Source: Octopus sinensis (taxonomy: Eukaryota). Taken from it: a DNA stretch of 64,000 bases. The notes beneath the pieces were generated by a model that did no database searches, was not told the DNA's origin, and worked only from the letters and a program-made list of their open reading frames with translations. Both the position numbers and the translations under genes were made by a program. Numbering within the stretch: position 1 is the first letter of the stretch; the number at the start of each line of letters is the position of its first letter. This document shows, piece after piece, positions 12,064-64,000 of this stretch. Location of the stretch: NCBI RefSeq assembly GCF_006345805.1, contig NW_021836127.1:208012-272011 (forward strand), in the 5' to 3' direction.

Positions 12064-12481
12064 CAGTCAAACCCCGGTTAGTCGCCACTTTTTAAACAAA
12101 AAATCAAATTTTATAAAAAGAATTCAGTTACTCGTCAGATTCAGTTACTCGCCACTATTTTTAATTTTTTAATTTAAAATAAAATGGTTTAATTTAAAAC
12201 AATAAAATAATTTCCACATTTATTAACCATGCGGAAGTGTACTCGGTTATCTTTGGAGGAAAAGCAAAGAATTTTAAATTTCATTGATGAAAATAAGGGT
12301 CTTAGCTTAAATCGAATTGCCTCAATTTTCTCGATTATTTTGAAGAAAAAAATTTCCAGAAGATGCCTAAACGATCTAAAAATAAATAAAAGCGAAATAG
12401 CCTCTATTAATCCAATTTTTGGGGGAAAAAGTCGTTTATCTTGCAGAAAATTTCCTGCACTATACCATTTCCTATACTAAA

Positions 12482-12743
12482 TGGGATTAACGTCAAACTA
12501 TGTGGGATTAACGTCAAACAAAGTGGGATTAAGGTCAAACTATGTGGGATTAACGTCAAACTATGTGGGATTAACGTCAAACAAAGTGGGATTAACGTCA
12601 AACAAAGTGGGATTAAGGTCAAACTATGTGGGATTAAGGTCAAACTATGTGGGATTAACGTCAAACAAAGTGGGATTAACGTGAAACAAAGTGGGATTAA
12701 GGTCAAACTATGTGGGATTAACGTCAAACTAAATGGGATTAAC
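12482..12743 (+). repeat. 12 x 21-bp tandem array, left arm
   Basis: Units TGGGATTAA(C/G)GTCAAAC(TAT/AAA)G read directly. Confidence 0.95.
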
Positions 12744-13250
12744 ACCAAAAAATTCTTTTTTTTAAAATTTTATGTTAACCATATTTAGTGTGTCGGCAAT
12801 ATTTCCCTGTATTCCAGAAATAAAGCCTACACAATCTTTAGACGTAATGGTTTTCATGCTATCCACAATTATTTGTTCAAGTATCCGTGTTCGATACTCT
12901 TTAATTGATAAGCCTTCTCCCTGTTGAATTCAAATTTTTGTTTTATTCCATGAAGGGTAATTGTGCTATCGTCTTCAATGCATGATATTAAAAAGTCGAC
13001 ATGTTCTTTGTCAAACTTTTTTCTATAATTTCCACCTCTCGTGTCAGGTTTAACTCCATCCCTTATCCAACGATATGCTGTTGTTCTCGAGATATTGAGT
13101 TCAAGTGCTGTTTTTTTCCAATCTCCACCTGATTCTGCAGCTGAAATTAAATGTATTTTATTTCTATGCATTTGATTTTTCTCTTCCAATGATTTACGTG
13201 GCATTTTTATTTGCTGCGCCGAAATATAATATTTATAATAAACGTAATCC

Positions 13251-13503
13251 ACTTAGTTTGACGTTAATCCCACATAGTTTGACCTTAATCCCACTTTGTT
13301 TGACGTTAATCCCACATAGTTTGACCTTAATCCCACTTTGTTTGACGTTAATCCCACATAGTTTGACCTTAATCCCACTTTGTTTGACGTTAATCCCACA
13401 TAGTTTGACCTTAATCCCACTTTGTTTGACGTTAATCCCACATAGTTTGACCTTAATCCCACTTTGTTTGACGTTAATCCCACATAGTTTGACGTTAATC
13501 CCA
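13251..13503 (-). repeat. 12 x 21-bp tandem array, right arm (inverted)
   Basis: Reverse complement of the left-arm units. Confidence 0.95.
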
Positions 13504-14805
13504 TTTAGTATAGGAAATGGTATAGAATCGGAAGTTGTATCTTGGCTCGAACAAATAGAATTGGCTGGAGGATTTCTTGATGACAATGCAATTTTATTAA
13601 AAGCAAAAAGTATTGCAAGATTACATGGAATAACTGATTTTATAGGAAGCAATGGATGGCTTTCCAGATTCAAACAGAGAAACAATTTAAAATTAAGATT
13701 ATTCCATGGAGAATCTGGCTCAATAACTGAAAATCTAAATGAGCAAATTGAAAAATTTCAAATAATTTTATCTACGAAAGTACAACAATATGATCGTGAA
13801 AAAGTTTACAATGGTGACGAAACTGGTGTTTTTTTTTTAAAAATGTTCCTTCAAAAAGCATTTGCTCAAAAACTCGACCTGGAAATAAAATCCTTAAAGA
13901 TCGGTTGAAACTTTATTAATCATTAGTAGATTTTCGCTATTTCTGTGTACAAATATGGTCGGGTCAGATAAGAAAATTCCATTAATGACTGGGAAATATC
14001 AGAAACCAAGATGTTTTAAAAACATTAAAATTGAGAAATATTTAAAATACTGTCATTCCTCAAAAGCATGGATGACTCAAAAAATTTTTAATGAATGGCT
14101 TTATAATTGGGATATTGAATTAAAAAAGAAAAATTCTTTTAATTATTGACCAATGACCATCACATAAAATATTAATCGAATTAAAATTTATTGAAATTCT
14201 TGTTCTTCCTCCGAACACCTCAACAATATTGCAGCCGATGGATCAAGGAATAATTCGTTCCTTTAAAACTAATTGCAATAAGTTCAAATTTAATGAAATT
14301 CTTCAGAAAATTAAATGCGGATATGGCATTCATGAATCATACAAAAATTTAAAACTTAAAGATGGAGTTTTATTTACCTATTTTGGTTGGAATGAAGTCA
14401 TCAAATAAACTATCAAAAATTGTTTCAGGCATGCTAAGTGGATTCCATATGAAGAGGAAATTCAATCTTCTAACTATACGATTGAGAAATATGAGGAGAC
14501 AATAAAGCAATTGAATATTTTGGATCCAATGGAACAATCAGATTTTCTTGATTACACGTACACTGAAATAGACGAAGTGGAAGAATCCCTCAAAAACGAT
14601 GATGACGTAAATGAGAAATAAACACGTGGTATTTTTGAAGAGAAAACACCTGCGAATGAAATAAATCATGAAGATGCGTTTAAAATGTTGCATAATATCA
14701 AAAAGTACTATACTCAAGACGATATTTTTAATATTAACGCAATTCAAATGATCAATCAATTAATCGAAGATACAATGTTTACTAAAAAAACAATTAAATT
14801 AAATG

Positions 14806-14925
14806 TGGAGAAAAAAGACGGCGGCATTAGGCCTATTGCCGTCGGAAATGTTTTCCGCCGTTTGTTTGCAAAAGTCGGGTGCAAACTGGTAATTCCGTCT
14901 ATTAGTGACGAACTCCAGCCCATTT
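14806..14925 (+). mobile_element. Short internal CRE-like RT fragment inside the pogo 3' end
   Basis: EKKDGGIRPIAVGNVFRRLFAKV motif; GC-richer than the flanks. Confidence 0.8.
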
Positions 14926-15048
14926 CGTCTTTCAACATTTAATTTAATTATTTTTAATTTTGTGAATATAAAATTTGATTAAAATTTGATAGTGAGTATT
15001 CAGTTACTCGCCAAATACAGTTACTCGCCATTTTTGGCTTGGTCCCAA

Positions 15049-16332
15049 ACATGTACACACATGGTCATCTTGTTATGAAGTACCAAACCTCCACATCCTG
15101 TTACATGAGGATATGGTTTTGGCAAACGTATACATGTGCACACAACAGGATCCAACTTACGCCAACCAAAGAGGAGGCGCTGTATGCAGTTGACCAGTAC
15201 AGGGCTGGAAATATGGAGAAGTACAAGACTAATCCTGATTATCCGGATGACGTGTCAAGATTCTTTGTTGACGTGACCAACTACCTAGAGTCCCTTTCCG
15301 TCTCTGCCTGCAGGCACTGTCTTCAGCGGTGGTGTTTGCAATACAACAGCCTGTTACCTCAGCGACAAGTCCATATATGTCGAGCTGTACAAAGATCTCA
15401 CAAGTACGATCTCACTTTCCCACCTTGAAGATGACACGTATACAACGATATGGGACCAATCTTTCCACATCGACAAAACATGTTGCTTCCAATACTGCGG
15501 GAATTATTATTGGTCCTCATATGAAGGATTGATGATAAACGCAAATGGAGATTGTCCAAGAATGTGCCTTGGTCGACCCCATGCGATGAAGCCAGGTTGG
15601 AAACTGCAAGGAGAAGAGCTATCCATTGACATGCAGTTTAGGGTGCATGACTGTGAGATTCTTCTGCTGAGGTAGGACTCACATGAAAGTAAATACGGCC
15701 GATCTCCATTACTTGACACCGATCAACAAGTCGTACAGTCATGTGTAACTAAAATGGCCATGTATGAATGGATTGATCAGAATGGAATGCTACGTCCATG
15801 CTGCATAGGACCCTGGTGCATCAATCAACGCGATTGGACATCAGGGCTCGTCAAGCCATATTGCCTAGCAGACACCTTCTTTGTCAACGGAATATATGTT
15901 GACCGCGATTTGAAGTTACGGATCCCATACGATTACACAGCTGATCAAGAGTATCATGCCGAGTTTAACATCTCTTCGTTTATGACGGATATTGTTCCAT
16001 GATAAAACTGCAATCAAAAAGACCATCGAAACCAATTACTCAGACCTATTTGGTCAATTGGGTCAAAAATAGCTGCAGCCGCGAAATTCGTTGGTGTCGT
16101 GGTTCTGCGTTTTATTGCCATTTATATTTTGTGGCCATACATCCACAGGAGGCACATTCATGACCGTGTTGAAAGATTACACAAAAGGGCATTGGGGAGG
16201 TATCAAAAATGGAGAAGGAGAAGGTCAATTCAAGAGGTTGACGACCCTATTGAGCTGGCGTCCGGGTCAGAGCTCACAGTGCAGAGAGTTCTCAAAAATA
16301 TTTCTGTACCAGTCTCTTGTTCTTTACAATAA
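15049..16332 (+). pseudogene. Endogenous viral element: rhabdovirus-type (class III fusion) glycoprotein G, 5'-truncated and frameshifted
   Basis: Collinear G-like blocks GHLVMKYQTSTSCYMRIWFW, LTPTKEEALYAVDQYRAG..NPDYP, FSGGVCNTTAC, IDKTCCFQYCGNYYWSSYEGL, VNTADLHYLTP, VNGIYVDRDLKLRIPY, then hydrophobic FVGVVVLRFIAIYILW and a basic tail; intronless and GC-richer than host. Confidence 0.8.
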
Positions 16333-16429
16333 AAAATTCTGTTCTGTTATTTGTCATTTTATAATATTTATCTTGACAAAATAGATTTTGAAATAGAATT
16401 CAAATATTTATTTTGAATTTTCTTCCAAG

Positions 16430-18750
16430 TCAGAAAGTATAACCACCTAGGCTCGGTATGGTCTCACTTACTAGAAAAAGGTTGAAATTGCTCGACAACT
16501 AAAAAGTCATTCACACAGAGTACTTGCTCAAAAATATGAAACGGGCATTGGCACAATTGCTCGAATAAAAAAAACGATTACGCCGCAAATAACCTGTGGG
16601 AACATTATTCCAAATTTTCGGACTGAAACAAAAACTGACGATATTTTTAAAACATTGGATAGTAAAGTTCTCGACGTTTTTCAACAATTATGGCTCCAAA
16701 ATATTCCAGTTTCAGGTCCTCTTGTCAAAAAAATTGGTAATTTTACGTTTTCTCACATTGTTTTAAGGTTTGAAAATTGCGGGTAAATTGAACATTACAA
16801 GCTTTAAAGCATCGAATGGTTGGTTAATGAATTTTTAAAAAAGACATGAAATCAAATTCAAAATCCTTAGCGGCGAAAAAACTCATGTAATCGTGCTGGA
16901 ATTCAATCATTTTTAAAAGTTTTCCATTAAAAAATTGATCAATTTGGAAAAAATAATGGATCACATAAAACAAACGCCCCCAGGGGCGTTTGTTTAATAT
17001 GTGTGAAGTTAGGGGCGTTTGTTTAAAATGTGTTATATTGATGTTATAAAAAATTATATTATAATTTTTCCCATGTTTATTGTAGGTAGTACATACGAAA
17101 CAACTTTAAGAGAACTTCTAGGAAGTGATACAATCGGGATAATATCATTTTTTAAGGCAAAAAGTCTAATGAAATCAAAAATGATGTGTGTTTACTGCAG
17201 AACAGAAATGGTTTGGGTTTTCAAGCGTACCTTATCTGACCAATATACTTGGAAATGTCAGAATCAAAACTGTTCAAAATACAAGACCACATTGTCAATA
17301 CGAACAGGTTCTGTTTTGGCTACTTCGAGTATAAGTCTCAAAACATGGTTAGATATTTTGTATAGGTGGAGCAATGAAGAATCAATTGTTATGATTAAAA
17401 AATCACTGACCTTATCATCTCTAACACTTATAAAAATTTTTAAAACCATTAGAAAATGTATTAGCAGACACTTTGAAAGTAATCCCGTAAAATTATGTGG
17501 AGAAAATGTAGTCTGCCAAATCGATGAAAGTCTCTTTTGTCATAAACAAAAGTACCATCGGAGTAGACTTGCTAATTCTCAAGTGTGGGTATTCGGTATT
17601 GTTGATACCTCATTTTCACCGGCAAGAGGTTTTATGCGAGTGGTTCCAAATCGATCAGCGGCCACTTTAAACCAATTATCTGTGAAGTAATTCTGCCAGG
17701 ATCAATTATCCATAGTGATGAATGGAGGGCCTATTCCAATTTAAATGTTTTTGGATATGACCACGCTACTGTAAACCACTCAATTAACTTTATTGAACCA
17801 ACCATTGGTGTTCATGCCAAACATGTGGAGTCCTATTGGAATAAAAACAAATTGCGTTGTAAGAAAATGAAAGGTGTCAAAAAAGAATTTTTACAAGACT
17901 ACCTAAACAAATTTATGTGGTGTGACAACGTAATTGGTGATCCTTTTGAAAAGTTAATGGAGCTTTTGAAAAATTATTATGTTGTTCAATAAACTTGTTT
18001 CTGAAGTATAGTATTTATTTATAAATTTGATTTTTAGTTTTACATTACTTTAATGTTTTCGTCGAATGTTTGACATGTATAAATTTAGTGGCGTTTGTTT
18101 AATATGTGTAAATTTAGGGGCGTTTGTTTAATATGTGTAAATTTGGGGGCGTTTGTTTAATGTGATCCAAAATAATATCTTTAACATTGATGAAACTTGT
18201 CTTTTTATACAAAAGACCCCAAAAAATCATTCGTACAAAAAAATAAAAAAGCTTCAGGGTCTAAAATGAATAAAGAAAAAATTTCTTTGCTCTTTTGCTG
18301 CAGTTATTCAGGCCAAAAATTTGATCCTTTAATAATCGGGAAATTTAAAAATCCCAGATGTTTCAGAAATTTTAACCCTGAGGATTATGGTGCTATGTAC
18401 TCATCTTCCAAAAATGGCTGTATGACAAGAGATATTTTTATTCAATGGTTATTCTTAGTGAATGAACGAATGAAAATGGAAAAGAGAAAAATTTTAATAA
18501 TTCTTGATAACGCTTCGTGTCATGAAAATAAATCGCTCTCAAATATCGAATTGCTGTTTTTACCCAAAAATACAACTCCAATTCTTCAACCATTGGATAA
18601 TTGGATAATCAAAGCTTTTAAAGATAATTATTCGAAGGCGTTAATTGAATTTATTTGTTGAAAAGATGAAGAAGATTTTTACTGCGACTTACTTAAAAAA
18701 ATTAATTTACGCCAATCATTGATAATAGTATCGAAATCGTGGCAAATTCA
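16430..18750 (+). mobile_element. Decayed pogo/Tigger transposase split by a Merlin insertion
   Basis: NIPVSGPLVK, FKASNGWL; rejoined GKNN|IFNIDET; then LILDNASCH and FLPKNTTPILQPLD. Confidence 0.9.
16958..18168 (+). mobile_element. Merlin (IS1016/ISXO2-like) DNA transposon, near full length
   Basis: TIRs GGATCACATAAAACAAACGCCCC / GGGGCGTTTGTTTAATGTGATCC; 8-bp TSD AAAATAAT; transposase with CVYC..WKC, CQIDES, VWVFG, SDEWRAY, VNHS, ESYW; one frameshift near 17670. Confidence 0.95.
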
Positions 18751-20884: not shown

Positions 20885-21530
20885 CAAAAGCTGGCTGCAC
20901 CGCGGATAACAAACGAATTGCCTCGCAAGATTGCTATAGATACCTTCTGGTACAGTCACCTGGTTTCCCGGTAGTCATTCGTGTTCTTTTCAACGAGCTT
21001 CACGATGATCGAAAGAACCCTCTTCCCAGCAGTCCAAATCACGCCGCTCGTTTCCACAGCAATTGGAACAAAGTGGTATGAGTCAGGAAGTGACGCGTAC
21101 TTGCTCCGCTTGTTTTTCTTCGGCCCGACAAGAGACGAAGCCAGAACACGATGCAGACTGAGTAACGGTTCCCCGAGAGAAAAGATGTCAGCACAGGTTA
21201 CATCCCAAACGAGACATTCCCCTTGCTGTGTGGGAATAGTCATTCCGTCCGGACGCTTGCCGTCTCCGCGATCAAGACCAGTGAGCTTCAGAACCGAAGG
21301 GAAGACTGCGACATTAAGTCCTAGTTTGACGACGTTGTTCAAACTGGAGTGTCTCGAGGTACGTCCACTACTTGACCGACAAGAAATAGGATGGAGGTTA
21401 TCCGAGACCATCAACTACCCGCATTTGCATGAATGGGGTGGCAAAGAATGATTCCGAGTCGTAAACAATTACCGAGTCGAACTAACTCATCATCCAAAAG
21501 TATCCAGCCGAGGATAGTGGGACGGCATTT
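20885..21530 (-). mobile_element. CRE-like retrotransposon RLE domain
   Basis: HPISCRSSSGRTSRH, GLDRGDGKRPDGMT, WDVTC, FVPIAVETSG, IAILRGN. Confidence 0.9.
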
Positions 21531-24589: not shown

Positions 24590-25005
24590 TGCATGAACAA
24601 CCTTTATCGTGCAGGAGGAGTGCCGGACGTTTTCCGAGGCACTCTGCTATGAACGACATCATACGGAGTGCCCTCGACTTGGCGGAATTTCCTTCGGTTC
24701 TCACACCACCGGGTCTTGACCGCGGTGACGGGAAATGTCCTGACGGGATGACCCTTTTCCCTTTTGAGGGCGGAAAAGGCCTCATATGGGATGCAACCTG
24801 CTGGGACACTTTTTCTGCTTCACATTTAACTTCGTGTGCTCTGGAGGCTAAATCTGCTGCTAAGAAGGCTGAAGATTTAAAGCTATCCAAATATTCTGCC
24901 CTTTCGGAGGAGTTTTTCGTGGTGCCGATGGCGGCGGAGACGTCGGGTGCTCTCGGTCCAAAGACTGAAAAGTTCCTCCGCAAGCTCGGAGCCAAAATCA
25001 CTCGT
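24590..25005 (+). mobile_element. CRE-like RLE domain fragment
   Basis: PLSCRRSAGRFPRH, GLDRGDGKCPDGMTLFP, WDATC, VPMAAETSG. Confidence 0.9.
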
Positions 25006-34124: not shown

Positions 34125-34563
34125 CCACGCGTCTGCTCGAGGCAACCGCAAGCCGTGCCAGCTGGAGCCCTCTGGCCTTAACAGGGCGATGCAAGAGGCC
34201 GTACGCGTCTCGCTCTTCCCGTTCCAGTGCGGCAAGCGATCGTTCTGGACGCGACAGGGTCTGACACTTTTGCGTCAACATGCCTTCTCGCGTCCGCGAT
34301 CGAAGCTGGCACAGCGGCGAGGAGGGCAGAGACCCGGAAGAAACACAAGTACGCCTCGCTCGCCGACAGATTCCTCTTGTGCCTGTTTCAGTCGAAACAT
34401 CAGGCACATTCGGCCAGCCACGCTACGTTTTCTCACCGAGAGAGGCCGTCACCTCGGGAGGATTAGAAACGACCCCCGCGAGGTCAATCGGCTTTTTGAG
34501 CGCGTCTCAATAGCCGTACTCAGGGGGAACAGTTTCTCTATTCTCTCTGCGGCCAGCAGCTGA
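34125..34563 (+). mobile_element. CRE-like RLE fragment and 3' end
   Basis: LEPSGL, DATGSDTFA, VPVSVETSG, RLFERVSIAVLRGNSFSIL. Confidence 0.9.
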
Positions 34564-35319
34564 CTTCCTGTTCCATTTTCTTTTCTTTAGATTAATTTGA
34601 TTATATTATTTTTTATTATTCAAAAATAATTTTTTCAATCCATTTTTAAAAAAAAAAATTTAAAAAATAAGTAAATATAAATCTTCACGCTGTGCAATGT
34701 TTGAAAACATCTGATTTATATAAGCGTAATATCTCAATCCAATTGATATTCCATTTATAAAGGATTCACATATATCGTATGTATCCTGAAATATATTCTT
34801 TTCATATCAGCTTATCATTTATTGGTTGTACTTGCAAATTATAATTTCTAGATTCTATTTGTACACTTATTTAATTTTTTTAAGCTGATAAATTAACATT
34901 ACAAACCGATTTTAGTGTTACAGTAAACAGAATAAACATAACTATAGCATTTTGTAAATCCCCATAGATGACACAATCTTTTCAAATAACAAAAGAAAGT
35001 AGTTTCGGAAGACGTCATCGCCCTTTAGTCCTGTCAAATCGAGTTTAACTATTTATTTACTTTTTATCTAAAATCAGTTTATTGAAATCAAAAAGAGTAA
35101 ATGTACATCAAAAGTTAAAGTTTATAATTTTTAAAACTTAGAACAGTCGGACATCATGATCGTAATTATAAAAAAACATTCATATTTAAATTAGAAACTT
35201 ATCCTAAATCCAAGACCTGGATCTTTAGCCTATGTTTATCAACCAGCTCTATATAATCAATAAATCATAAAAGAAATATCCATATTAAAATAAAACCAAA
35301 ATAAATTAGTGTAAATAAA

Positions 35320-38300
35320 TTAAACCGAAAGACTAAATATTTGATTGAAAGAGTCTCCAACAATTTCACGGGCATTTGCATTAGGACAAATCACATCCAC
35401 AGATGCTGTCTTTTCATAATACGAAACCACAAGTCTTGCGAGTACCAACATACCATTGTCAAATTTCATCGATAAATGAAACACATTCCGCCCCAAATCG
35501 TCAAAATTTACAAACAAGCTAAAAATATTCAACTTCTTCAACTCCGCTGACAAAATACCTACAAATCAAACACGAATGTAAGCCTTGATCGGGAAATGGA
35601 AGTGTGGGTAAATCGATGCATGTTTTATAATCAGGCTGCACATTGTACCACCATGAATTCTGATAGTTAGCCAAATTTCCACTCGGGGCGAACAAAACTG
35701 CCCCGTGTACTAACGTCTGGATAACTCCTTGGTTCATATTGACCACAAACTATCTCAATTGTCCAAAAAGTACCTTTGGGTAGATTAAAGTCGGAGATTT
35801 TGCCATAAAACATTGCTGAAAACTGATTGCTGTCTCAAAAGACACGTGATTGTGTGAGTTTGATATAACTTGAGGTTGAAACGGTACAATTAGCCCAAAA
35901 CTGTCAAGGTTGTCAATTTATACAGCTTCAAACCTATTTTCTGAGACTGACACGTTTTTAAACACCAACTGCTGTGCTGAACTTCCAAAAATATCCACTT
36001 TGGCAATAATAGCTTCCCCTCTACTCCAGAAAACATCCATTCGTAGACACCCTGAACTCACTTTACAACTCCAAGACTACAAATCAATCAATCAACTAAA
36101 AAAACAACATAATGGTCCTTTGAACTTGGCTTTGTGCCTTTACTGACATGAACATTGAGTCGTCGTGACTGTAGGGAGGCGGATCAACCAACTCGTCCAT
36201 GTTTGACCCAAAATCTCCCATTAATTGAGGGAGGACGGCTCAATATGTGAACTCTGAGGGTCGAATGTATTAAAAAACTAATATTAAACTCACATAATAC
36301 CAAAGAATCATCCAAAATGTTATCAGGAGTCGACTCTGATTTTTTCGTATTGTCAGGAATTAGAAACTGTTCGTCAAAGCCCAGTAAATCATTCAAAAGA
36401 TTCCCAGATTGACCACTAACACGAACATTGGTTAAATCAGTTGTATTATCCTCACGTCTATAAAGGTTTATTAATTCACTAACGTTCTAGAAACAGTTGT
36501 CACGCTATTTTCCTGTCCATATGCAAGAGATGGAGGCTTGTGAGTAATAGAAGCCATGCTTCCAATGTGTTTTATCATTTCACTGAGTAGCTTTGGGTCA
36601 AGTGAGTCAATTTTTTCACTTATGGCTGGCTTTGTACTCAAAATAATCTCCTTTGCTGCCTCAGGGTCACTCGACAGGAGTCTCCAGTAAATAAATCCCC
36701 GATCTCTTAAATCAGGGTTTAGACTGTCCTAATGACTGTAAATGAAGAATTGTACTTTTGTGCACAAATCCAATATTTTCTCTACCAAATCCTGTCCTGA
36801 CGGATTCTTGAGGTAATATTTGACAACTGAAGTCAGTAGTTGTAGTTGCACCTGTTTTATTCTAGTTTATTAAACAACCTGAATATCCTCGTCAGAGAAT
36901 GTCTCGATAAATGAGTTTAGTAGTTCATCTGCATTTTCTATTCGTTCAGAATACTCTCCGACAATCCAAACCATCGCTGCTCTAAAAGTAACCCCTGATA
37001 ACCCACCTTGACTCTGGTTCATCCAACAAATCAAAATTCTCACAAAAATTTCCAATTATACTTTCATATTTATTCGGATATTTTCTAAATATATCCTAAA
37101 CTAGTTATATCCATCAACCCGAATGACTACTATAGCCTCTTGGATGATATAATCGACTTTAGACTTTACAAGTTCCTGCAGAGTGAGGACACACTGTTCT
37201 GCCACATCGGGGATCTTTATGGCACAACAACCAATGGCACGGACCGACTTTCTTACAAAGTCAATGTCTACTCCTGTGGCGTACCTGAACAGTCATAAAC
37301 TCACACAAACTCCTTCAATTCAGGCAGAACTCGACTTATGTTGTCAATGTTAGTCAGACGTGTTATAATCTCCAGTTTCTCTAATTTTACATAAATCATG
37401 TCGTTGTATTTGACAAAGAAATTTGCGACTTCATTACACAACACGTTTGGCCTGAAAATTTTTAGGGTGGTTAACCTCTTTTGTAGGATTAGATTAATGT
37501 TACGTAACCCCACATATTGGATCTCTGAGGGGGCGGAAAGCATAGTTATGAGAGGATTTGACAGTTTTTTATCACACGAGCTTAGAAATTCTTCATCAGT
37601 CAGTCGTTCCATCATCCTCATCATCACTTTAATTGTCGACAGAACAACTCCTGCATTCGAATGAGACAACCTCTGAGTAACACGTTCACAAATTCTATAT
37701 TAATTCCAATCTGGCTACGTTTTGGCCTCTTTTTCTGTGCTTGGTTGATAGGCAGCGATATAATCCAAAATAGTGATCTGTCCCCATTCTGTACACTCGT
37801 TGAGAGCATTCATCAACAGATTAAGTTCACTTTGGGATATTTCTGCATTCTTTCCCAAGGAAATCTGCTGCATCTCAGACATTGTGGCCACAGCATTAGC
37901 CACGACCTACACAATCAGATAACAGACCACCATAGAATTGGAATCTGTGAGGTAAGACTTTATATTTGAGAAGCCTTGGTCTTCTACTAGTTTAGGATTC
38001 AGTTTGTAGAGTTTTCCAATGCAAAGAACTGCAGTTTTCCTTACATAGGGGTCACTGTCCTTTAGACATTTACGAAGTGGGTCACATAAATATTCTGTCA
38101 CACAATTCACATTCATACAAGCCATAGTTCTGATTGCAAGGGCACGAACGAGGGGAAATGGCTCGTTTGTGTCCTAAAATGAGTGGTGGGATATGACTTT
38201 GACAAATGAATTGACTGCCATTATAGCCATGTCGGGATTAGAGTGGGAATAGTTTAACAGATATATATAAACCAGTTTTTTTAATTCCAAATCAGAGGTT

Positions 38301-38567
38301 TGACTGCAATTCAAAACGTCAACAAACAGGGAACTAAATTACACACGTCAGTTATTTTGAAAAATTGTTTTTTATTCAAAATATGTCAAGTATGTGATAT
38401 TTTTGTACCTTACATCTTTTCCTGTGGTCATGAAAAATATCACTTTCTTTACAGCGTCCTTTCTTTTAAAAGGTTTATCGCTGGTTAATTCTGATTTTAT
38501 TTCATTTAATTCGCCTATATTTGTTAAATATATATTTTCAACTGTTTTTGGCGTATGTTGAGGACAT
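35320..38567 (-). CDS. AP1B1: AP-1/AP-2 complex beta subunit (beta-adaptin), copy 1, about 17 exons
   Basis: Spliced: [85 protein letters not shown], plus appendage domain. AP1B1 vs AP2B1 cannot be distinguished; 1-nt indel near 36222. Confidence 0.93.
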
Positions 38568-38981
38568 TGGTTATACACCAGGTTAACGAGAAGATTAATT
38601 AGATATTTATTTGATAATTTAAATTTTGAATAACGTAAATCTTTATTAATATATTTAATAATTTAAAAAAACAAGAAAAGAAATAATAATTAACCGGCGT
38701 CCTGGTATTCTCAGTCAAACATAACTTTTGGTTTAAACTTTCAAGCCTGTCATCTCCGGGTGTTTGATTATTCCTAATTTTTTCCAAAATTGATTCAAAT
38801 AATATTTTTATTATAATTGGAAAAAATATTTTTTTATTTGGAAAACCGAATTTAAAAAAATGAATAAAATTATATATCACTTTCATTTGTAACCTGTATT
38901 GTACGTACTGTCCGCGTCTCTCTTATTCAAAAAAATTTCAATTTTTTCCCACCCAAAATTTCAGAAATAAAATATTAACAA
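38568..38981. promoter_or_regulatory. Putative bidirectional promoter region between beta-adaptin and INTS1
   Basis: 414 bp between divergent ATGs; inferred from gene geometry only. Confidence 0.55.
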
Positions 38982-41900
38982 ATGACAGACCGTAAAGTTT
39001 ATAATAAAAAAAGATTTACAAAACAAGGTTTTTTGGATAAAAACCATTTTTTACTATTTTTATAGAAATCAAGAAAAACACGGAATTTATAGCACTCGGT
39101 AAATCCCAAATTATTTATAAATAAACAGGAACAAAAATAAACTCAAAAACATCAGAAAAACTTTTCAAATCCTCGGATTTCACTCCACACATAAAACAAA
39201 GCGACAACACCTCAGGATTAAAGAACAAAACTAAAATTGACTTAGATTTAGGCTCAGATTCTTTTGGTGTTTTAAATTTTATTATTTTTAAGTCAACCCT
39301 TCCGACCTTATGAAGGAAGCCGACGCGCCTCGTCCGAACACGCGAAAAAGATTGCAATTTTGTGTGGAAAAGCAATTCTTTTCCGATCAGATTTGAATTT
39401 CTTTTTCCCTCTGATTTTTATTGCAAAAAAATATTCCGACATTTTCTTGGATGAAGAAATATTGAATGTTTGTTTTTTGAGTTCATTTTTAATTTAGTTA
39501 CTTAAAGATTTGATAAAAAGAGGCGGGAAAAATAGCGAATTGGAAACAATTTGTTCTCTAAATGTGATTTTCTGGAGTTTAAATAACGTCCAGGAATGGC
39601 CTGTTTTTCTTATGGAGGTTTATTTTTTTTATAATTATAAATGTAGTATTTTCTAGACGATTTTTTATCTGATGATCGCTGGTGTGAGTTGAAACAATGT
39701 CAGGGACTGGTCTCTAATCTAATTTCCTCATTCGAACCTATCCACCACGCTTTTCAACTCCCAAACCTCATAGCTTATCGTCCCTGTATTGTCTAGTAAA
39801 ACCAATTTCCTAGTATCTATCCAAAGTACTCTCATTTCATCATTTAATATTTTCCTCGAATCTATGGTCCCTTTTGACAGATATTTAACCACACGGAAAC
39901 AAGTCGGGGACTTTGTAGTCAGTGCCCTAAGCAGAAATACAAGAGAGACTACCCCAGCTATGGTAAAATTGGTTGGACTGACGGCTTGTTATGATTCTGT
40001 CAAACACTTTTTGTCAGCTTGTTTGGAGCAATGGATTCAGTCCACTAAGGCATTGACAGTTTTGTTTACTCTTAGCTTGTCCCTTTAATATTTGAGGCAT
40101 TTGATGCGTGTTGTATGGCAAAGTGGGAGAATGTCGATTGTGATTATTTTCGCGAGTTTATTAAAAATGTCATAAAAATTCGTTTCAAATCAAATCAGCT
40201 GACTTTGGTTGAATCGTCTTTTAAGTTATTGTTTGTACTAAAAATATTTTAGAAAATTATTGGCCGTAAATGGCGATTATTTTGGCCAAATGACGAATTT
40301 TATTATTAAATGTGAGGCCAAATCGTTCAGAACTTGCGGAGGGCATTTGATTGGTCACTGCTTGTTTGTGAATAGAGAAATATCAACTGATGTATATTTT
40401 GTAATTTACGATTTTAGTGTCTTGTTGATTTTTTTGTGAATTATTTGTTCGATAACTCTCAAATTGCTCTTATCAATTTGATTCGAGATTTCCTCAAGCT
40501 GCCGCTTTTCAGTGATAACTTTACTTTGCTTTATTCGAAATTGTTGCTCAGATCGAATGGTCCTGGTTGCATATCGACTTTCTCTTATCATTCATTTGAG
40601 GAATACTGCGACATGATTGTTGAAATAGGGTGCTGTGCGATGAATGTATTTAGCTCATCCACAAACCTTAAAAGTATTGACTTTTTTATTATTTTTATTA
40701 AATTGATTAAATATACTAATTTCAGAATATGGGAAATACATTAATACAGTCCGTCAAAGTGTCCTTGAGTGGCTAAAAAATATTTCCCTGTCCATTCCTG
40801 ATTTGTGTAAATCACGATTTGAGACATGGTTGGTATTTTAGCCTCAATTTAAAGGATTAAGCGAATTTTCTGCTATGAAGAAATTTGTCGTTACAACTTT
40901 TTTACGGACAATTTAAATATAGATTCAAATGGTTATTTATTGATTTACTTAACTATTTTAGGTCGATTGGAAATTTGTTTAGTTTCCTCGAATTTGTTAG
41001 AAAATTTATTGCTAATTGCCAATAATCCAGTCAAATTGATTAGTCCCAACGTTGTTCAAAATATTATATTATATTGGCTTATTTTTGCTGAGACTAGCCG
41101 GTTTAAGTATTTAAATATTTTATTTAGTTCAAACCAAGACTTACTAATGTTGAATATGTATTGGAACTTGTTTTTGACCTTTCATTATATAATCCTCCAA
41201 TGTAGAATGTTTATTTGTATATATAAGGGAGACTATCCAAGACCTGGAGCGTAGATTTGCTGTCTCTGATCTGTATTGGAGTAGTTGGATGATTGCAATG
41301 ATTTTGGTAATTTTCTATGCTAAGGATCCGGCCAAATTGATGGCAAAGTTCCCCACATTGAGTTCTCTAGTCGAGTTGGTCATATCAGAGTTTTGAATTC
41401 CTAAAATTAATATTTTAGTGATTCCTCGGCAATATTTCCTCTCGAATCTCAGGTTTTATTATTTCAAAATTATTTCTCAGATTCGAGAGCAGGAAATTGT
41501 GGATATACTTAATTTAGAGAACAAACTTGCAGGAGAGACAATTAACGACCAAAACAGCCACCTCAAAGATTATTTAACTTACTTCAATGTCTAGTATCCA
41601 AGCCTATAAAATGATATTTTAGTGGACCAGCGAGACTACCTTCGTTGAAATTTCGTGCTTTGCTTGATAAAGTTAGAAAGTTGTTAAAACTCGATCATTA
41701 TATAATCGAAATGAACAACCATTCGTTATTTGTTGAGATTATAAATAAAACAGAAGTAATTTTAACAAATATATTGTAGAATCTATCCCGATGTAATGCA
41801 ATGGTAGACAGTGCCATCAAAATTGATTGTGAGATCACACAAATCCTGGATTGTTCATTTCTCATATCATATCTCGTTTTCAAAGTAACACGTGACTGCA

Positions 41901-44900
41901 AGGATTTTGTATTTTTGTATAAATAATGAATTAGAGTCTCCCTCAGTGTTATTTGCCATTGCTCGTGAATTTAAATGCTCGATGCTGCTGTGATTCGTCG
42001 TCGGTCATTCACCATCTTTTTGAATTGTTTACTTTTTTGAGTCTCCCCGACGAAAGTGATAGATTTCATTCGATTTTGGTATTTTGGGCATATTTGACTT
42101 GAGGTACTCGATTTGATATTTGCTGGTGACGTGACGGCAGAACACGGAAGTTTTATTTCACAGCTCGAACTGAAATCGTTTTTCGTGGAATGTAAACCAA
42201 TGATTGTGCGATACATATTTAAGGTTAAAAAATTCACTAAATAAAAATATTAGGCAATTTATTCTGAGACGAATAAACTAATGCTAATGAAATATTTGTT
42301 CTTTTTGTCGAATCATATATCCATCGTTGGAACTGAAATAAATGTTTTGTACATTTCATTATTTTAGTCCCTTACTGATTGGATTATCTCCCATCATATT
42401 GTTTTTGACCAACCTCATCATCATTTAACCAATGAAGTAATCCTCAATCTGGAGAAGGTATATCTCAGGGCGTACCAAGTCATCAAAAACAATGTTAGTT
42501 TATTTTCATTTGTTAATTATATTTTCATATGGTGTATTTTTTTAGAGAGAGAATGGAAATTCCGATTTTCTAGCTGTTTTTGTTTTTTTGGCTTGTTTAA
42601 AGAATTCTGATGGAGAATTAAGTGATTGTTTACAAGATGCGTGTTTTTCTGAACTAATTTTTTCCCAGTGGTTGGCTATAAAAGTCTTTTTTTCTCACTT
42701 AAAAATACTTTATTTTACAGGTTTTAATAGTTTTTAATTTAATTATTTAATAGTACTTAAATCAATGGATGATGAGACGTGCATAAGACTTCTTTGTTGC
42801 AATTTACTCCCAGATTATAAAATTAAATTATTACTACAAAAATTGGAGCAGAATCGTCAAATAGAAGTGCATAACGTCCCAATAATTTCACAAATTGTAC
42901 AAAATTGGCAAAATAGAAATAATTCTAAGCTTGGAAGTCAATTTATTAACATTTCTACATTCAAAAATAGTTGTTTATCGAGTAATACTTATCAAGTTAG
43001 TATTATAGCTAATAAAGACGACACCCACATGGAAATGGAGTCACATAATGAAAACAAATTAATTTCTGTATTTTATATAAAAAATATTATTTTCAGATAA
43101 TAAATAATTCGTTTAATTATCATTCAAAGTCAGATTTTATTAGTTGTATTACTGTATATTTTTGATTATGATTAATTTTAGGACGAGTCAAGAGGGGCTT
43201 ATGTGCTTAAGGATATATTGGAGGTTTACCACCTTATTAAAAAATCTATTTTAGGCGGTTAATGAACTTGGAATAAAATTATTTGAATTTATCGAGAACC
43301 TTGATAACATTGCTGGCATTAAAGTGTCAACATTGTGTGTAGATGTACTATTTAATTATATTGTAAGTATATATTGAGTCGTTTACTAATTTAATAGTAT
43401 GAAGAATATTGGGCGGAATTGGTTTCCGAGTTGCTTATGAATTCCGAAACCAATTCGAATTTGTCATTAAAAATAAGAACTAAGCTAATCAAGTATCGAC
43501 TTGACCCTGAATCCTTTCTTTCTAACGGAGAAATATTTGGTTTGTTGATTAAATAATATTATTTTGACGACGAAGTGGTTGATGTACAGCTGTGTAAAAT
43601 GGAATGCGAGGAGAACGTAAATTCATTGAGTTTAGAAAGGATATGGAACGAGGGCATTCCTTTAGAAGAGCAGAAATGGAAATTCAACCAACTTCTATCA
43701 ACAGAGAAATTGGAGGATTTGATTGAATTCGCAGCCAAAATTGTTTTCCGTCAAAAAGAATTATCACATAAATATTTAATCGGTTTTATACAAACAATAT
43801 TTGAACGAGCACAGGTTTTTGTGTAATGTTTATATTACTAAGAGTGCTAAAATTGAGTGGAGTTTGTGTAAACGAATTCGTCTCGACTATTTGTTGTGGC
43901 ATTTTATTCGTGCATGTGAGGAAGCTTGTAGTCCTGATTTAATAAACGCACATTTCACGTTATTATATATCATTGCAGAATATGATGTGGAGTCACTCAA
44001 ACTTTGTATATCACAAACTGATAAGTATTGTTTAATTACATAATAACTTAGTCCGGGTATCAAAAATAGTCTTTATTCTCTTGCATATATTCGAGCACCT
44101 TCTAAATTCCCGCCAAAGTTGTATTCTCAGTCAAATATAAAAGTATTTTGATTTTTATTTTGCTAGACTGCTGATTTGTTTATTCGAAGGCTTTTGGTTT
44201 TGCTTTCCAAACCCGAGACTGGACTAAGAGCCAAAAATCGAATGCAAAAAGCTTCTCTTTTGTGCAGAAAAATAATCAAATCTTACCCTCAGTTGTTCTT
44301 AAGGTGAGATTTGTGTTCTATTCTGTAAAGATACTTGCCTTTGTTGGGATCTCTGATTTGTGGCCGGGGTAATTTTACATTCAACGAACTCACATCAAAG
44401 CATATTTATCATTTTTTTGCACATGTCGTCGGCTTATTGGACTATTCGTTGACATTACCTCTGAATGTTAACCCAGAGGCTGTCTGCCGGATATTCGATG
44501 CTTTTATTATGCTAATTAAAGTATGTTTTAATTTCTATGAATATTTATTAACATTTTTTTAAATGTTAATAAATGCAAATATATTTTTATTATAATAAAA
44601 AATATGTTTAGACTCAATTGGAGACTAAAAATCCACAAGGAATAAACGGAATCAAATCAATCGTAGTTAAATTTGTTTATTTGGTAAAGCGACTGCTCTA
44701 CATGCATCCTCGTGAGACAATTACGACTGCAAAGTTGGCTCTTCCATGCCTCAAGTTGATGTGCTATAAAGTAATTAAATATTTAGAGAATATATTAACT
44801 CTATTTGTCATCCGGGGAGTCTTCTTTCTGAAGTGAATGCTCTTGAAGTGGCTATATCCATTGATACACGTGGTTCAAATTATTTGAATATTTTTTCTCG

Positions 44901-45406
44901 CCGGCTGACATTAAAGAAAGACTTGATTCCTAATTTTAGTTTTGATTTAAGGAAATCATATAGAGGTATATTTAAACTACTATTTTTTAGATTTTTATGG
45001 CAGTTTGCAAGAATTAGACAATATTTCTAAACGTAGGGTTGACGTCCTTTCCGATTTGCAGGTTTTTGTTTTTTGGATAAAATTTAGCCCGAATTGGTGC
45101 AATTTTGTAGAAATTCTACAAAACAAGTTCAAAAATTAAGTTCTCGGTTACTTTCTCGTCAGTTGATGACAAATCCGAGTGAAAGACTTGGAAGAGAGTA
45201 CATAGGTCAACGACTTGATCAAATGGTCAATGAAAGTGCTAGTTTTGCTGAGATAATGGTTGTTTGTGGAGGTTTTATGGTTCTTTCATAAATTGATAGA
45301 GTCGAGTCCAGAATTTGTTACTGCTTTATGTGATTTGGCCATAAGACGGAGTCGGACTATTTCTTTGGGGGACACTATAAGGACGTGTGGGCTCAAATTT
45401 AATTGA
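38982..45406 (+). CDS. INTS1: Integrator complex subunit 1, highly divergent, many micro-introns, copy 1
   Basis: Collinear INTS1-like blocks EFIALG, WPVFLME/YFLDDFLSDDRW, LEQWIQSTK, FAVSDLYWSSW..FPTLSSLVELVI, LPLLGSLICGRGNFTFNELTSKHIYHFFAHVVGLL, RRVDVL; a few homopolymer frameshifts. Confidence 0.85.
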
Positions 45407-48995: not shown

Positions 48996-49239
48996 CGCTG
49001 ATTAGCTGACCAGCATAAAAACACCATGAACTTACCATCAGTAGTGAAAAACAAAAGCGGCTATATTGTATTGCCTTCCAACTCGTTGATTAGCTGATTT
49101 TCAGGGCCTTTACATCATCTCATAAAGCAGATCGAAAATTGGCCATCTCTAGCCTCGTACTCGTCTCAGCTCACAGTTCGGTATGGACATTCTACAAGCA
49201 ACATAGCATCAAATTTGATAACAGCTTTAATTTTGATTC

Positions 49240-49605
49240 ACCCTCAGCCCTGTCGATGCGGTGGTACGGTGGACGTGAAAGGCCTTCACCCCCTCTCCTG
49301 CCGCCGACCGCAGGCCGCTTGCCTCGCCATTGAGCAATCAACGACGTAATCTCAAGAGCACTCAATGCTGCTGACTTCCCCAATGTACTAGAACCCTCCG
49401 GACTGGACAGAGGGGACGGAAAACGCCAGGATGGGATGACTACCTTCCCATTCCGGAATGGCAATTGCTTCATCTGGGATTCCACGTTTGCAGATACGTG
49501 GTCATCATCTGCTTTATTATCATCTGCATCTTCTTCCGGTTCGACCACTGCCTCCGCGGAAGCCCGCAATGTCAAAAAGTACAAGAATCTTGCCACTCGG
49601 CATTC
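49240..49605 (+). mobile_element. CRE-like RLE fragment
   Basis: HPLSCRR, LEPSGLDRGDGKRQDGMTTFPF, WDST, KKYKNL. Confidence 0.9.
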
Positions 49606-53127: not shown

Positions 53128-54144
53128 AAGCTGGCACAGCGGCGAGGAGGGCAGAGACCCGGAAGAAACACAAGTACGCCTCGCTCGCCGACAGATTCCT
53201 CTTTGTGCCTGTTTCAGTCGAAACATCAGGCACATTCGGCCCAGCCACGCTACGTTTTCTCACCGAGAGAGGCCGTCACCTCGGGAGGATTAGAAACGAC
53301 CCCCGCGAGGTCAATCGGCTTTTTGAGCGCGTCTCAATAGCCGTACTCAGGGGAACAGTTTCTCTATTCTCTCTGCGGCCAGCAGCTGACTTCCTGTTCC
53401 ATTTTCTTTTCTTTAGATTAATTTGATTATATTATTTTTTATTATTCAAAAATAATTTTTTCAATCCATTTTTAAAAAAAAATTTAAAAAATAAGTAAAT
53501 ATAAATCTTCACGCTGTGCAATGTTTGAAAACATCTGATTTATATAAGCGTAATATCTCAATCCAATTGATATTCCATTTATAAAGGATTCACATATATC
53601 GTATGTATCCTGAAATATATTCTTTTCATATCAGCTTATCATTTAATTGGTTGTACTTGCAAATTATAATTTCTAGATTCTATTTGTACACTTATTTAAT
53701 TTTTTTAAGCTGATAAATTAACATTACAAAACCGATTTTAGTGTTACAGTAAACAGAATAAACATAACTATAGCATTTTGTAAATCCCCATAGATGACAC
53801 AATCTTTTCAAATAACAAAAGAAAGTAGTTTCGGAAGACGTCATCGCCCTTTAGTCCTGTCAAATCGAGTTTAACTATTTATTTACTTTTTATCTAAAAT
53901 CAGTTTATTGAAATCAAAAAGAGTAAATGTACATCAAAAGTTAAAGTTTATAATTTTTAAAACTTAGAACAGTCGGACATCATGATCGTAATTATAAAAA
54001 ACATTCATATTTAAATTAGAAACTTATCCTGAATCCAAGCCCTGGATCTTTAGCCTATGTTTATCAACCAGCTCTATATAATCAATAAATCATAAAAGAA
54101 ATATCCATATTAAAATAAAACCAAAATAAATTAGTGTAAATAAA

Positions 54145-57100
54145 TTAAACCGAAAGACTAAATATTTGATTGAAAGAGTCTCCAACAATTTCACGGGCAT
54201 TTGCATTAGGACAAATCACATCCACAGATGCTGTCTTTTCATAATACGAAACCACAAGTCTTGCGAGTACCAACATACCATTGTCAAATTTCATCGATAA
54301 ATGAAACACATTCCGCCCCAAATCGTCAAAATTTACAAACAAGCTAAAAATATTCAACTTCTTCAACTCCGCTGACAAAATACCTACAAATCAAACACGA
54401 ATGTAAGCCTTGATCGGGAAATGGAAGTGTGGGTAAATCGATGCATGTTTTATAATCAGGCTGCACATTGTACCACCATGAATTCTGATAGTTAGCCAAA
54501 TTTCCACTCGGGGCGAACAAAACTGCCCCGTGTACTAACGTCTGGATAACTCCTTGGTTCATATTGACCACAAACTATCTCAATTGTCCAAAAAAGTACC
54601 TTTGGGTAGATTAAAGTCGGAGATTTTGCCATAAAACATTGCTGAAAACTGATTGCTGTCTCAAAAGACACGTGATTGTGTGAGTTTGATATAACTTGAG
54701 GTTGAAACGGTACAATTAGCCCAAAACTGTCAAGGTTGTCAATTTATACAGCTTCAAACCTATTTTCTGAGACTGACACGTTTTTAAACACCAACTGCTG
54801 TGCTGAACTTCCAAAAATATCCACTTTGGCAATAATAGCTTCCCCTCTACTCCAGAAAACATCCATTCGTAGACACCCTGAACTCACTTTACAACTCCAA
54901 GACTACAAATCAATCAATCAACTAAAAAACAAACATAATTGGTCCTTTGAACTTGGCTTTGTGCCTTTACTGACATGAACATTGAGTCGTCGTGACTGTA
55001 GGGAGGCGGATCAACCAACTCGTCCATGTTTGACCCAAAATCTCCCATTAAATTGAGGGAGGACGGCTCAATATGTGAACTCTGAGGGTCGAATGTATTA
55101 AAAAACTAATATTAAACTCACATAATACCAAAGAATCATCCAAAATGTTATCAGGAGTCGACTCTGATTTTTTCGTATTGTCAGGAATTAGAAACTGTTC
55201 GTCAAAGCCCAGTAAATCATTCAAAAGATTCCCAGATTGACCACTAACACGAACATTGGTTAAATCAGTTGTATTATCCTCACGTCTATAAAGGTTTATT
55301 AATTCACTAACGTTCTAGAAACAGTTGTCACGCTATTTCCTGTCCATATGCAAGAGATGGAGGCTTGTGAGTAATAGAAGCCATGCTCCCAATGTGTTTT
55401 ATCATTTCACTGAGTAGCTTTGGGTCAAGTGAGTCAATTTTTTCACTTATGGCTGGCTTTGTACTCAAAATAATCTCCTTTGCTGCCTCAGGGTCACTCG
55501 ACAGGAGTCTCCAGTAAATAAATCCCCGATCTCTTAAATCAGGGTTTAGACTGTCCTAATGACTATAAAATGAAGAAATGTACTTTTGTGCACAAATCCA
55601 ATATTTTCTCTACCAAATCCTGTCCTGACGGATTCTTGAGGTAATATTTGACAACTGAAGTCAGTAGTTGTAGTTGCACCTGTTTTATTCTAGTTTATTA
55701 AACAACCTGAATATCCTCGTCAGAGAATGTCTCGATAAATGAGTTTAGTAGTTCATCTGCATTTTCTATTCGTTCAGAATACTCTCCGACAATCCAAACC
55801 ATCGCTGCTCTAAAAGTAACCCCTGATAACCCACCTTGACTCTGGTTCATCCAACAAATCAAAATTCTCACAAAAATTTCCAATTATACTTTCATATTTA
55901 TTCGGATATTTTCTAATATATCCTAAACTAGTTATATCCATCAACCCGAATGACTACTATAGCCTCTTGGATGATATAATCGACTTTAGACTTTACAAGT
56001 TCCTGCAGAGTGAGGACACACTGTTCTGCCACATCGGGGATCTTTATGGCACAACAACCAATGGCACGGACCGACTTTCTTACAAAGTCAATGTCTACTC
56101 CTGTGGCGTACCTGAACAGTCATAAACTCACACAAACTCCTTCAATTCAGGCAGAACTCGACTTATGTTGTCAATGTTAGTCAGACGTGTTATAATCTCC
56201 AGTTTCTCTAATTTTACATAAATCATGTCGTTGTATTTGACAAAGAAATTTGCGACTTCATTACACAACACGTTTGGCCTGAAAATTTTTAGGGTGGTTA
56301 ACCTCTTTTGTAGGATTAGATTAATGTTACGTAACCCCACATATTGGATCTCTGAGGGGGCGGAAAGCATAGTTATGAGAGGATTTGACAGTTTTTATCA
56401 CACGAGCTTAGAAATTCTTCATCAGTCAGTCGTTCCATCATCCTCATCATCACTTTAATTGTCGACAGAACAACTCCTGCATTCGAATGAGACAACCTCT
56501 GAGTAACACGTTCACAAATTCTATATTAATTCCAATCTGGCTACGTTTTGGCCTCTTTTTCTGTGCTTGGTTGATAGGCAGCGATATAATCCAAAATAGT
56601 GATCTGTCCCCATTCTGTACACTCGTTGAGAGCATTCATCAACAGATTAAGTTCACTTTGGGATATTTCTGCATTCTTTCCCAAGGAAATCTGCTGCATC
56701 TCAGACATTGTGGCCACAGCATTAGCCACGACCTACACAATCAGATAACAGACCACCATAGAATTGGAATCTGTGAGGTAAGACTTTATATTTGAGAAGC
56801 CTTGGTCTTCTACTAGTTTAGGATTCAGTTTGTAGAGTTTTCCAATGCAAAGAACTGCAGTTTTCCTTACATAGGGGTCACTGTCCTTTAGACATTTACG
56901 AAGTGGGTCACATAAATATTCTGTCACACAATTCACATTCATACAAGCCATAGTTCTGATTGCAAGGGCACGAACGAGGGGAAATGGCTCGTTTGTGTCC
57001 TAAAATGAGTGGTGGGATATGACTTTGACAAATGAATTGACTGCCATTATAGCCATGTCGGGATTAGAGTGGGAATAGTTTAACAGATATATATAAACCA

Positions 57101-57393
57101 GTTTTTTTAATTCCAAATCAGAGGTTTGACTGCAATTCAAAACGTCAACAAACAAGGAACTAAATTACACACGTCAGTTATTTTGAACAAATGTTTTTTA
57201 TTCAAAATATGTCAAGTATGTGATATTTTTGTACCTTACATCTTTTCCTGAGGTCATGAAAAATATCACTTTCTTTACAGCGTCCTTTCTTTTAAAAGGT
57301 TTATCGCTGGTTAATTCTGATTTTATTTCATTTAATTCGCCTATATTTGTTAAATATATATTTTCAACTGTTTTTGGCGTATGTTGAGGACAT
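54145..57393 (-). CDS. AP1B1: AP-1/AP-2 beta-adaptin, copy 2
   Basis: Same exon structure as copy 1; 1-nt deletions near 55915 and 56395; TTG vs TSG difference in FFMT(T/S)GKD. Confidence 0.9.
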
Positions 57394-57804
57394 TGGTTAT
57401 ACACCAGGTTAACGAGAAGATTAATTAGATATTTATTTGATAATTTAAATTTTGAATAACGTAAATCTTTATAATATATTTAATAATTTAAAAAAACAAG
57501 AAAAGAAATAATAATTAACCGGCGTCCTGGTATTCTCAGTCAAACATAACTTTTGGTTTAAACTTTCAAGCCTGTCATCTCCGGGTGTTTGATTATTCCT
57601 AATTTTTTCCAAAATTGATTCAAATATATTTTTTATTATAATTGAAAAAATATTTTTTTATTTGGAAAACCGAATTTAAAAAAATGAATAAAATTATATA
57701 TCACTTTCATTTGTAACCTGTATTGTACGTACTGTCCGCGTCTCTCTTATTCAAAAAATTTCAATTTTTTCCCACCCAAAATTTCAGAAATAAAATATTA
57801 ACAA

Positions 57805-63800: not shown

Positions 63801-64000
63801 GGCAGTTTGCAAGAATTAGACAATATTTCTAAACGTAGGGTTGACGTCCTTTCCGATTGCAGTTTTTGTTTTTTTATAATTTAGCCCGAATTGGTGGAAT
63901 TTTGTAGAAATTCTACAAACAAGTTCAAAAATAAGTTCTCGTCGTTCTTTCTCGTCAGTTGATGACAAATCCGAGTGAAAACTTGGAAGCGAGTACTAGA
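57805..64000 (+). CDS. INTS1: Integrator complex subunit 1, copy 2 (3' end outside the window)
   Basis: Near-identical to copy 1, with more single-base deletions toward the window end. Confidence 0.82.

Follow-up and report, generated by a model that had tools for sequence, protein, structure and literature searches.

The window, a stretch of 64,000 nucleotides of DNA, contains a broken endogenised rhabdovirus glycoprotein (G) gene joined to a module derived from a histone promoter. The gene was probably captured when a LINE that inserts at histone starts copied viral RNA in inverted orientation, with the promoter since lost and the copy likely silent. Taken alone, the G piece is a genuine viral fossil of an ordinary kind, left by an undescribed lineage. 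More surprising is where it sits, behind histone promoters at a fixed capture site that a LINE targets. An earlier sequence-only reading of the window recognized the viral gene. It missed the many pieces from several viruses, the second animal that was co-assembled, and the antisense placement of viral pieces at histone starts used by the LINE.

The G gene piece and its lesions

The features of the window that bear on the G piece are listed in Table 1. The piece is the GC-richer island of the sequence-only reading, with a GC content of 0.447 against 0.30 and 0.31 in the flanks. All eight of the quoted G motifs that were checked are present, and they are spread across three frames. Shifts of frame lie near 15305 and 15675, with a further one by about 15750. 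Such frame jumps had been reported and are real, but the damage exceeds that description, with two in-frame stops and the loss of both ends. At the 3’ end, the hydrophobic segment (a 19-mer with a mean hydropathy of 2.1) and the basic tail after it stand as described. The TAA and A-run, which had been taken as the gene’s own end, do not; they lie at positions 16330-16338. Because the host module begins at 16292, the stop and the 12 codons before it belong to the host. The signal peptide region is also lost; a hydrophobic N-terminus can be seen by eye in locus L004.

Table 1. Features at and around the G piece (positions in the window).
Position	Strand	Feature	Basis and remarks
13627..15030	+	Tc5/pogo-like DNA transposon remnant at the G 5’ junction	PF03221, PF03184; end repeats at 15001 and 15018
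15049..16291	+	Broken rhabdovirus-type glycoprotein (G) gene piece	PF00974, paralogue alignment, GC 0.447; without signal peptide or natural C-terminus
15051..15305	+	First natural frame piece, N-terminal half of fusion domain with aromatic loop	PF00974 E 2.4e-5; 87% identity to L043
15306..15999	+	Mid-ectodomain with frame changes	Motif frames, alignment; 85% and 77% identity to L043 pieces
16000..16005	+	Two adjacent in-frame stops	ORF list
16006..16291	+	Transmembrane-like segment (about 16075-16131) and basic tail, cut off at host module	Hydropathy 2.1; no Pfam match
16292..16458	+	Many-copy host arm, first 165 nucleotides; holds TAA and A-run	Assembly matches
16463..16994	+	Tc5-like remnant cutting the host arm short; H3-type promoter therefore missing here	Arm match stops at 16458

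A short-read contig from the DNA run X1 spans positions 15020-16172 with 3 substitutions and no gaps, so the lesions within this interval are not assembly errors. X1 may be from the same sample as the window and does not count as independent biological support. The contig takes in just 29 bases of left flank, and the junction at 16292 is crossed by none of the listed short-read pieces. This unbridged junction is what would speak for a chimeric assembly, with viral RNA or another organism fused to host DNA. A chimera is hardly credible, as the DNA run holds the island with its lesions, a second contig in the assembly (G000) carries the island with the same flanks, and the pattern repeats at many separate loci. 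The transposon flanks, the lesions, the second copy with the same flanks, and the DNA-run contig mark the piece as a non-retroviral EVE.

Identity of the glycoprotein

On its sequence, the piece is assigned to an endogenised rhabdovirus-type G of a divergent virus without a close database relative. The first natural ORF matches PF00974 at 25.4 bits, above the cut-off of 22, which bears out the earlier assignment, and the whole piece with X at its breaks also exceeds this cut-off at 24 bits. The central domain (PF24833) gives no match in the window copy and is above its cut-off in the divergent paralogues L045 and L040. A single-sequence protein database search with the window G gave none of 170 candidates, and a single-sequence search of the PDB gave no match. 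A cellulase match from an early search was a chance match and was set aside.

A profile made from nine genome-derived G pieces retrieves 78 proteins at E ≤ 0.001, mostly about 500-550 amino acids in length. Three of its ten best clusters are named, and these are the G of Ohlsdorf virus, Yongjia tick virus 2, and Nkolbisson virus. All nine PDB matches of the profile are named glycoprotein (E 1e-8 to 1e-4), and several of the entries are VSV, Chandipura, or rabies G. Known G proteins in the databases share 11-18% identity with the window family and include no close relative, in agreement with the divergent and possibly undescribed rhabdo-like virus that had been proposed.

The fold was modelled on the nearest paralogue, L043, which is 87% identical to the window G, rather than on the window copy itself. 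With X at the stops of L043, the model has a pLDDT of 80.7; its folding alignment held 52 database relatives including rhabdovirus G, which favours that fold. The structure comparison with VSV G that had been suggested gives a match at E 1.3e-15 through this model, and Mokola G is matched with a TM of 0.62. The best 20 PDB matches listed are vesiculovirus and lyssavirus G followed by herpes gB, and the named rows of a viral structure library search are all rhabdovirus G proteins. A class III fusion fold is the predicted fold of the G family, based on the L043 model.

The host module

In fuller copies, the arm that begins with the module has an H2B promoter motif (motif A) on one side and, at its far end, an H3-type promoter; both are aimed back at the captured piece. 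In the window, the G piece meets the arm directly. Motif A is missing, the arm is lost from position 16459, and this promoterless copy is likely silent. A window-type G that is 83% identical is still joined at motif A at locus L039. Sister copies point to an origin of the window piece at a histone site; its own junction lies off the hot spot.

A 27-nucleotide pattern locates copies of the module at 29 places in the assembly, the best of which are 97-98% identical over 167 nucleotides. An Rfam search of 12 sources holding the module returned no match, so the module is not a known RNA gene. A transposon end and a telomere-like LINE 3’ UTR were considered as its identity, and both were dropped once intact H2B and H3 turned up behind its motifs.

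The sequence-only reading had explained the island as a viral mRNA reverse transcribed into the germline. On such an account, a whole G mRNA, primed from its poly(A) tail, would have been retroposed with no fixed target, and an intronless, GC-richer island with one viral gene would fit. The TAA and A-run would then mark the 3’ end of the mRNA, but both are part of the host module and are silent on an mRNA template. A poly(A) tail with a target duplication is not found at the window G, and no poly(A) tract is present at the listed junctions with motif A. Retroposition of a whole mRNA is considered very unlikely.

The micro-intron animal

The assembly (2.72 Gb) contains two co-assembled animals, and the window belongs to the one with introns of about 25 nucleotides. 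The owner of these micro-introns is likely a dicyemid parasite. Eight introns read by hand fit lengths of 23-27 nucleotides, confirming the micro-intron genome noted earlier; the automatic intron finder was only partly right. The introns in the window were read in a gene taken to be adaptin-beta-like.

Identical copies of the H2B adjacent to the module lie on small contigs, and identity to it does not exceed 58% (mostly 53-55%) for the copies on chromosome-scale contigs. Piwi/Argonaute genes have their exons spread out on large contigs and are compact on small contigs. The sole identical H2B in the protein collection (P0013) carries octopus as its source label. An H2B labelled as an ant protein (P0006), on a 2.3-kb contig, is 74% identical across the whole query and far closer than every other match save the identical one. 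No named dicyemid sequence was matched in the protein and sequence comparisons of the micro-intron animal. Dicyemids inhabit cephalopod kidneys, according to the available part of PMC6736024, and the median intron of Dicyema sp. is 27 bp in that of PMC6543705.

Several other features of this genome were observed. The window contains a 10.9-kb direct duplication (34303-45201 and 53128-63996) that is 98.9% identical and carries the adaptin-beta-like micro-intron gene. Fragments of the 3’ end of a CRE-like retroelement are numerous in the window (for example, 20890-21435, 24598-25005, and 49203-49603). Minisatellite arrays occur at window positions 12411-13757 and at loci L098 and L116, and one lies inside an insert at the H2B start site. 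The histone repeat of the micro-intron animal (L130-L142) contains H4 and H2A in a divergent arrangement, with H2B and H3 in tandem; its histones are very divergent, and the repeat is heavily invaded by LINEs.

Other viral pieces in the assembly

Several divergent rhabdo-like viruses have left N-like, G, and L pieces in the micro-intron genome, which also contains partiti-like and noda-like pieces. The search for paralogues and for N and L genes that had been recommended was thus productive, with further G, L, and N-like pieces found in the assembly. There are 41 N-like protein matches, all on small contigs, and at least 33 Mononegavirales L matches. The N-like call lies below the cut-off (Pfam E 0.003-0.022), and a search of the PDB with the N-like profile found no entry. 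Partiti-like RdRP pieces (PF00680) occur at L089, L094, and L098, and a noda-like methyltransferase piece (PF19222) at L096, in the same cassettes. Some mapped noda and partiti marks that overlap LINEs are cross-hits and were ignored.

The best database matches of the L pieces are rhabdovirus L, at 37-44% identity. In a quick tree, from which three short pieces were excluded and which had no non-rhabdovirus outgroup, eight L pieces lie between the animal-type and plant-type references and do not join the clade formed by 18 database relatives. A Mononegavirales L fragment at L099 3801-5659 is on a 32.9-Mb contig (C23) and probably represents a viral fossil of its own, belonging to the large-genome animal.

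One locus, L040 (1579-8183, minus strand), contains a broken rhabdovirus-like block of five ORFs, composed of an N remnant, P-like, M-like, and G ORFs, and part of L. Between the ORFs are A7 gene-junction signals, which presumably represent the rhabdovirus gene-end/start consensus. As the block spans gene junctions, it does not derive from a single mRNA. Its G is 23-28% identical to the window G, whose virus is known from G alone. A 427-amino-acid ORF of the block was tried as N and rejected, its position making P more likely, so the piece called N on contig C12441 is P-like. This contig (L058, L139) carries a tandem 3.6-kb repeat of arm and P-like piece in opposite orientation. Three ORFs of no known family recur beside virus pieces (L096 4685-5434, minus strand; L109 1548-2351, minus strand; L050 5455-6003, plus strand) and are possibly P or M genes. 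Atlas look-ups gave no explanation for two recurring ORFs, and these were excluded from the viral counts.

Between the window G and three paralogues, pS is 0.68-1.06 and dN is 0.06-0.10, and the host arms beside these G copies are mostly 90-99% identical. Such divergent G within near-identical arms indicates that the copies come from different virus strains and from separate captures. The low dN/dS of several paralogues, and the fusion of the G frame to the ATG in the LINE 5’ motif (motif U) at three loci, would suit a decayed domesticated host fusogen or a retrotransposon envelope gene. Such an origin is extremely unlikely. Every G copy read is broken or truncated, divergent G adjoins L in the five-gene block with its rhabdovirus-type junction signals, and saturated dS within near-identical arms fits divergence in the virus.

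Antisense viral pieces at histone promoters

In reverse complement, motif A corresponds to the H2B promoter and leader. All 37 copies of the motif in the assembly were classified by their adjoining sequence. An intact or nearly intact H2B follows in six copies, and a virus piece lies within 300 nucleotides in 17 (13 N-like, 2 L, and 2 G). The remaining copies adjoin LINE in sense (2), a LINE piece in antisense (3), another promoter arm (2), a minisatellite (1), or unassigned ORFs (6). Firm G or L accounts for only 4 of the 17 abutting pieces, representing 3 inserts, and the other 13 are N-like.

All 17 virus pieces are antisense to the promoter, and they represent nine independent inserts. The probability of this by chance is 0.004 (2 × 0.5^9), if orientation is free and the inserts are truly independent. 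In seven of the nine, the insert joins 26-28 nucleotides from motif A, a single 3-nucleotide spot about 13-15 nucleotides before the H2B start codon. A noda-like piece, a partiti-like piece, and coding-strand pieces of LINE and CRE-like elements are antisense in the same way as the rhabdo-like pieces.

At N-like places without a previously known motif, the arm lies downstream on the same strand in 5 of 16 and on the opposite strand in none. Control tiles gave no comparable arm match (0 of 29), two of them having short, AT-rich matches of 75-83%. No promoter remnant is present in the stretch read at the other 11 of the 16 newly read N-like places, or at 6 or more L places (L151-L154, L158, and L055). 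Opposite orientations occur in the tandem pieces of C12441, in the five-gene block of L040, and in small arm fragments beside L042/L049 and L047.

The uniform orientation (9 of 9) would also result from selection, with viral cDNA patching fragile breaks at histone starts in either orientation and only antisense copies being kept, because they silence virus or are harmless. Piwi-clade genes are present, and mosquito EVEs, which arise through LTR retrotransposons, yield antisense piRNAs that restrict virus (PMC6797480, available part). Selection as the explanation is improbable. It leaves unexplained the nucleotide-exact coincidence of the virus and LINE 5’ junctions, and it is compatible with capture by the LINE rather than exclusive of it. 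Selection for antisense copies may instead add to twin priming or to a template jump, both described below.

LINE insertion at histone starts

The assembly contains LINE ORFs of 869-897 amino acids with endonuclease and reverse transcriptase domains. Among 20 distinct flanks of LINE tails, seven have the tail running in sense into the leader of H2B or H3. These junctions lie 20-24 nucleotides past the TATA start of H2B and H3, despite differing target sequences. Target duplications of 10, 12, and 15 nucleotides are found at L084, L074, and L136, respectively. The tail flanks and the three duplications establish the insertion as site-specific. In other copies, virus pieces have their antisense junction at the same nucleotide as LINE 5’ ends, and a shared 12-nucleotide stretch precedes five virus junctions and two LINE 5’ ends.

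At six places, H2B is matched over its first 27 residues alone; at L012 (1638-3047), the one of the six that was read, these residues are fused in frame to LINE ORF1. The split-off H2B start is either a second insertion point or a sign of a LINE with an adopted histone start.

Proposed mechanism of capture

The junctions suggest the following sequence of events. The LINE would cut across the histone start, and the gene-side end would prime on LINE RNA. The promoter-side cut end would then prime reverse transcription on a second RNA, here the viral plus strand, by twin priming in trans. This would place the virus sequence behind the promoter in antisense and set it head-to-head against the LINE 5’ end. 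Because each event would spare the promoter half of the target, pieces would accumulate behind the promoter. Virus pieces often begin directly after motif U, and this head-to-head layout of virus and LINE matches the expectation from twin priming. The complete order of promoter, virus, LINE, duplication, and histone was found at no locus.

The same arrangement at the same site would be produced by a template jump, in which the LINE reverse transcriptase, on passing the 5’ end of the LINE RNA, switches to negative-sense viral genome RNA. The frequent position of virus pieces right after motif U agrees with a jump, and the gene-junction signals kept in the L040 block argue that genome-length RNA was copied at least once. 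The jump fares worse with the noda-like (plus-strand virus) piece, the partiti-like piece, and the coding-strand pieces of LINE and CRE-like elements, which are equally antisense; minus strands of these viruses and of such coding RNAs are expected to be scarce. A template jump is regarded as unlikely for the pattern as a whole, and it may explain L040. For the window G, twin priming by the histone-start LINE on viral plus-strand RNA is preferred.

Piwi genes and a putative antiviral role

Five compact Piwi-domain loci (L160-L164) were found on small contigs, and the six best PDB matches of L160 are all Piwi. Piwi-clade genes are present in the same organism as the viral pieces. L160 has an RG-rich N-terminus, and L164 is GC-richer (0.46) than the other Piwi loci.

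Copies that keep their promoter would yield antisense viral RNA, putatively usable by Piwi proteins. A heritable antiviral memory in the dicyemid can be proposed tentatively on this basis, although it is rather unlikely. A LINE tethered to histone starts would file virus pieces backwards behind strong promoters, with the newest piece nearest the promoter, and the antisense RNA would feed Piwi. The analogy is with the leader-end spacers of CRISPR.

Antisense RNA-virus fragments in transcribed places are usually ascribed to chance plus selection. In the micro-intron animal, both the site and the orientation of viral fragments may follow from the targeting of one retroelement. As fossils, the pieces also testify to several divergent viruses of rhabdo-like, partiti-like, and noda-like type in a likely dicyemid. 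Rhabdovirus and histone sequences credited to cephalopods may stem from their kidney parasites. A 2023 report of rhabdoviruses in cephalopods is cited in the available part of 10.1101/2023.11.03.565523.

Comparison with known systems

The window family shares PF00974, conserved cysteines and prolines, and profile and fold matches with rhabdovirus G (VSV, Chandipura, rabies, and Mokola), and the window piece shares the transmembrane-like segment and the basic tail. It differs from database rhabdovirus G in being broken, truncated, only 11-18% identical, and invisible to single-sequence search.

No report of an EVE under a histone promoter or of a dicyemid virus was found in the literature searched; EVE tables and repeat libraries could hold parts of these. 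In the parts available, PMC10145014 deals with viral histone homologues and PMC13524379 with envelope genes of LTR elements. The EVEs in piRNA clusters of Aedes, as presented in the available part of PMC6797480, share retrotransposon-copied RNA-virus fragments, transposon scraps, an antisense-giving position, and Piwi genes with the arrangement described here. Their partners are LTR elements (Ty3/gypsy) in piRNA clusters, whereas the present arrangement involves a LINE at the start of a histone gene, with many junctions falling on one nucleotide.

No LINE targeted to histone starts was reported in the literature searched, which comprised main texts mostly outside subscription journals. Twin priming with 5’ inversions is known from L1, and bornavirus mRNAs have been retroposed by L1. 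Target duplication by a LINE, an inverted 5’ part, and LINE capture of viral RNA are common to those cases and this one. The differences are that the inverted part here is a foreign RNA, that no poly(A) tail is seen, and that the target is fixed.

Ty3, Tf1, and TRE5 are position-targeted retroelements, and R1, R2, and the Tx1 clade are LINEs specific to multicopy genes. Like the present LINE, all of them insert either at one defined place within a multicopy gene or a defined distance away from a promoter. Here, the target is the 5’ leader of H2B and H3, and the distance of 20-24 nucleotides from the TATA is kept while the sequence varies. A LINE aimed at histone starts by TATA distance would be a new mode of targeting.
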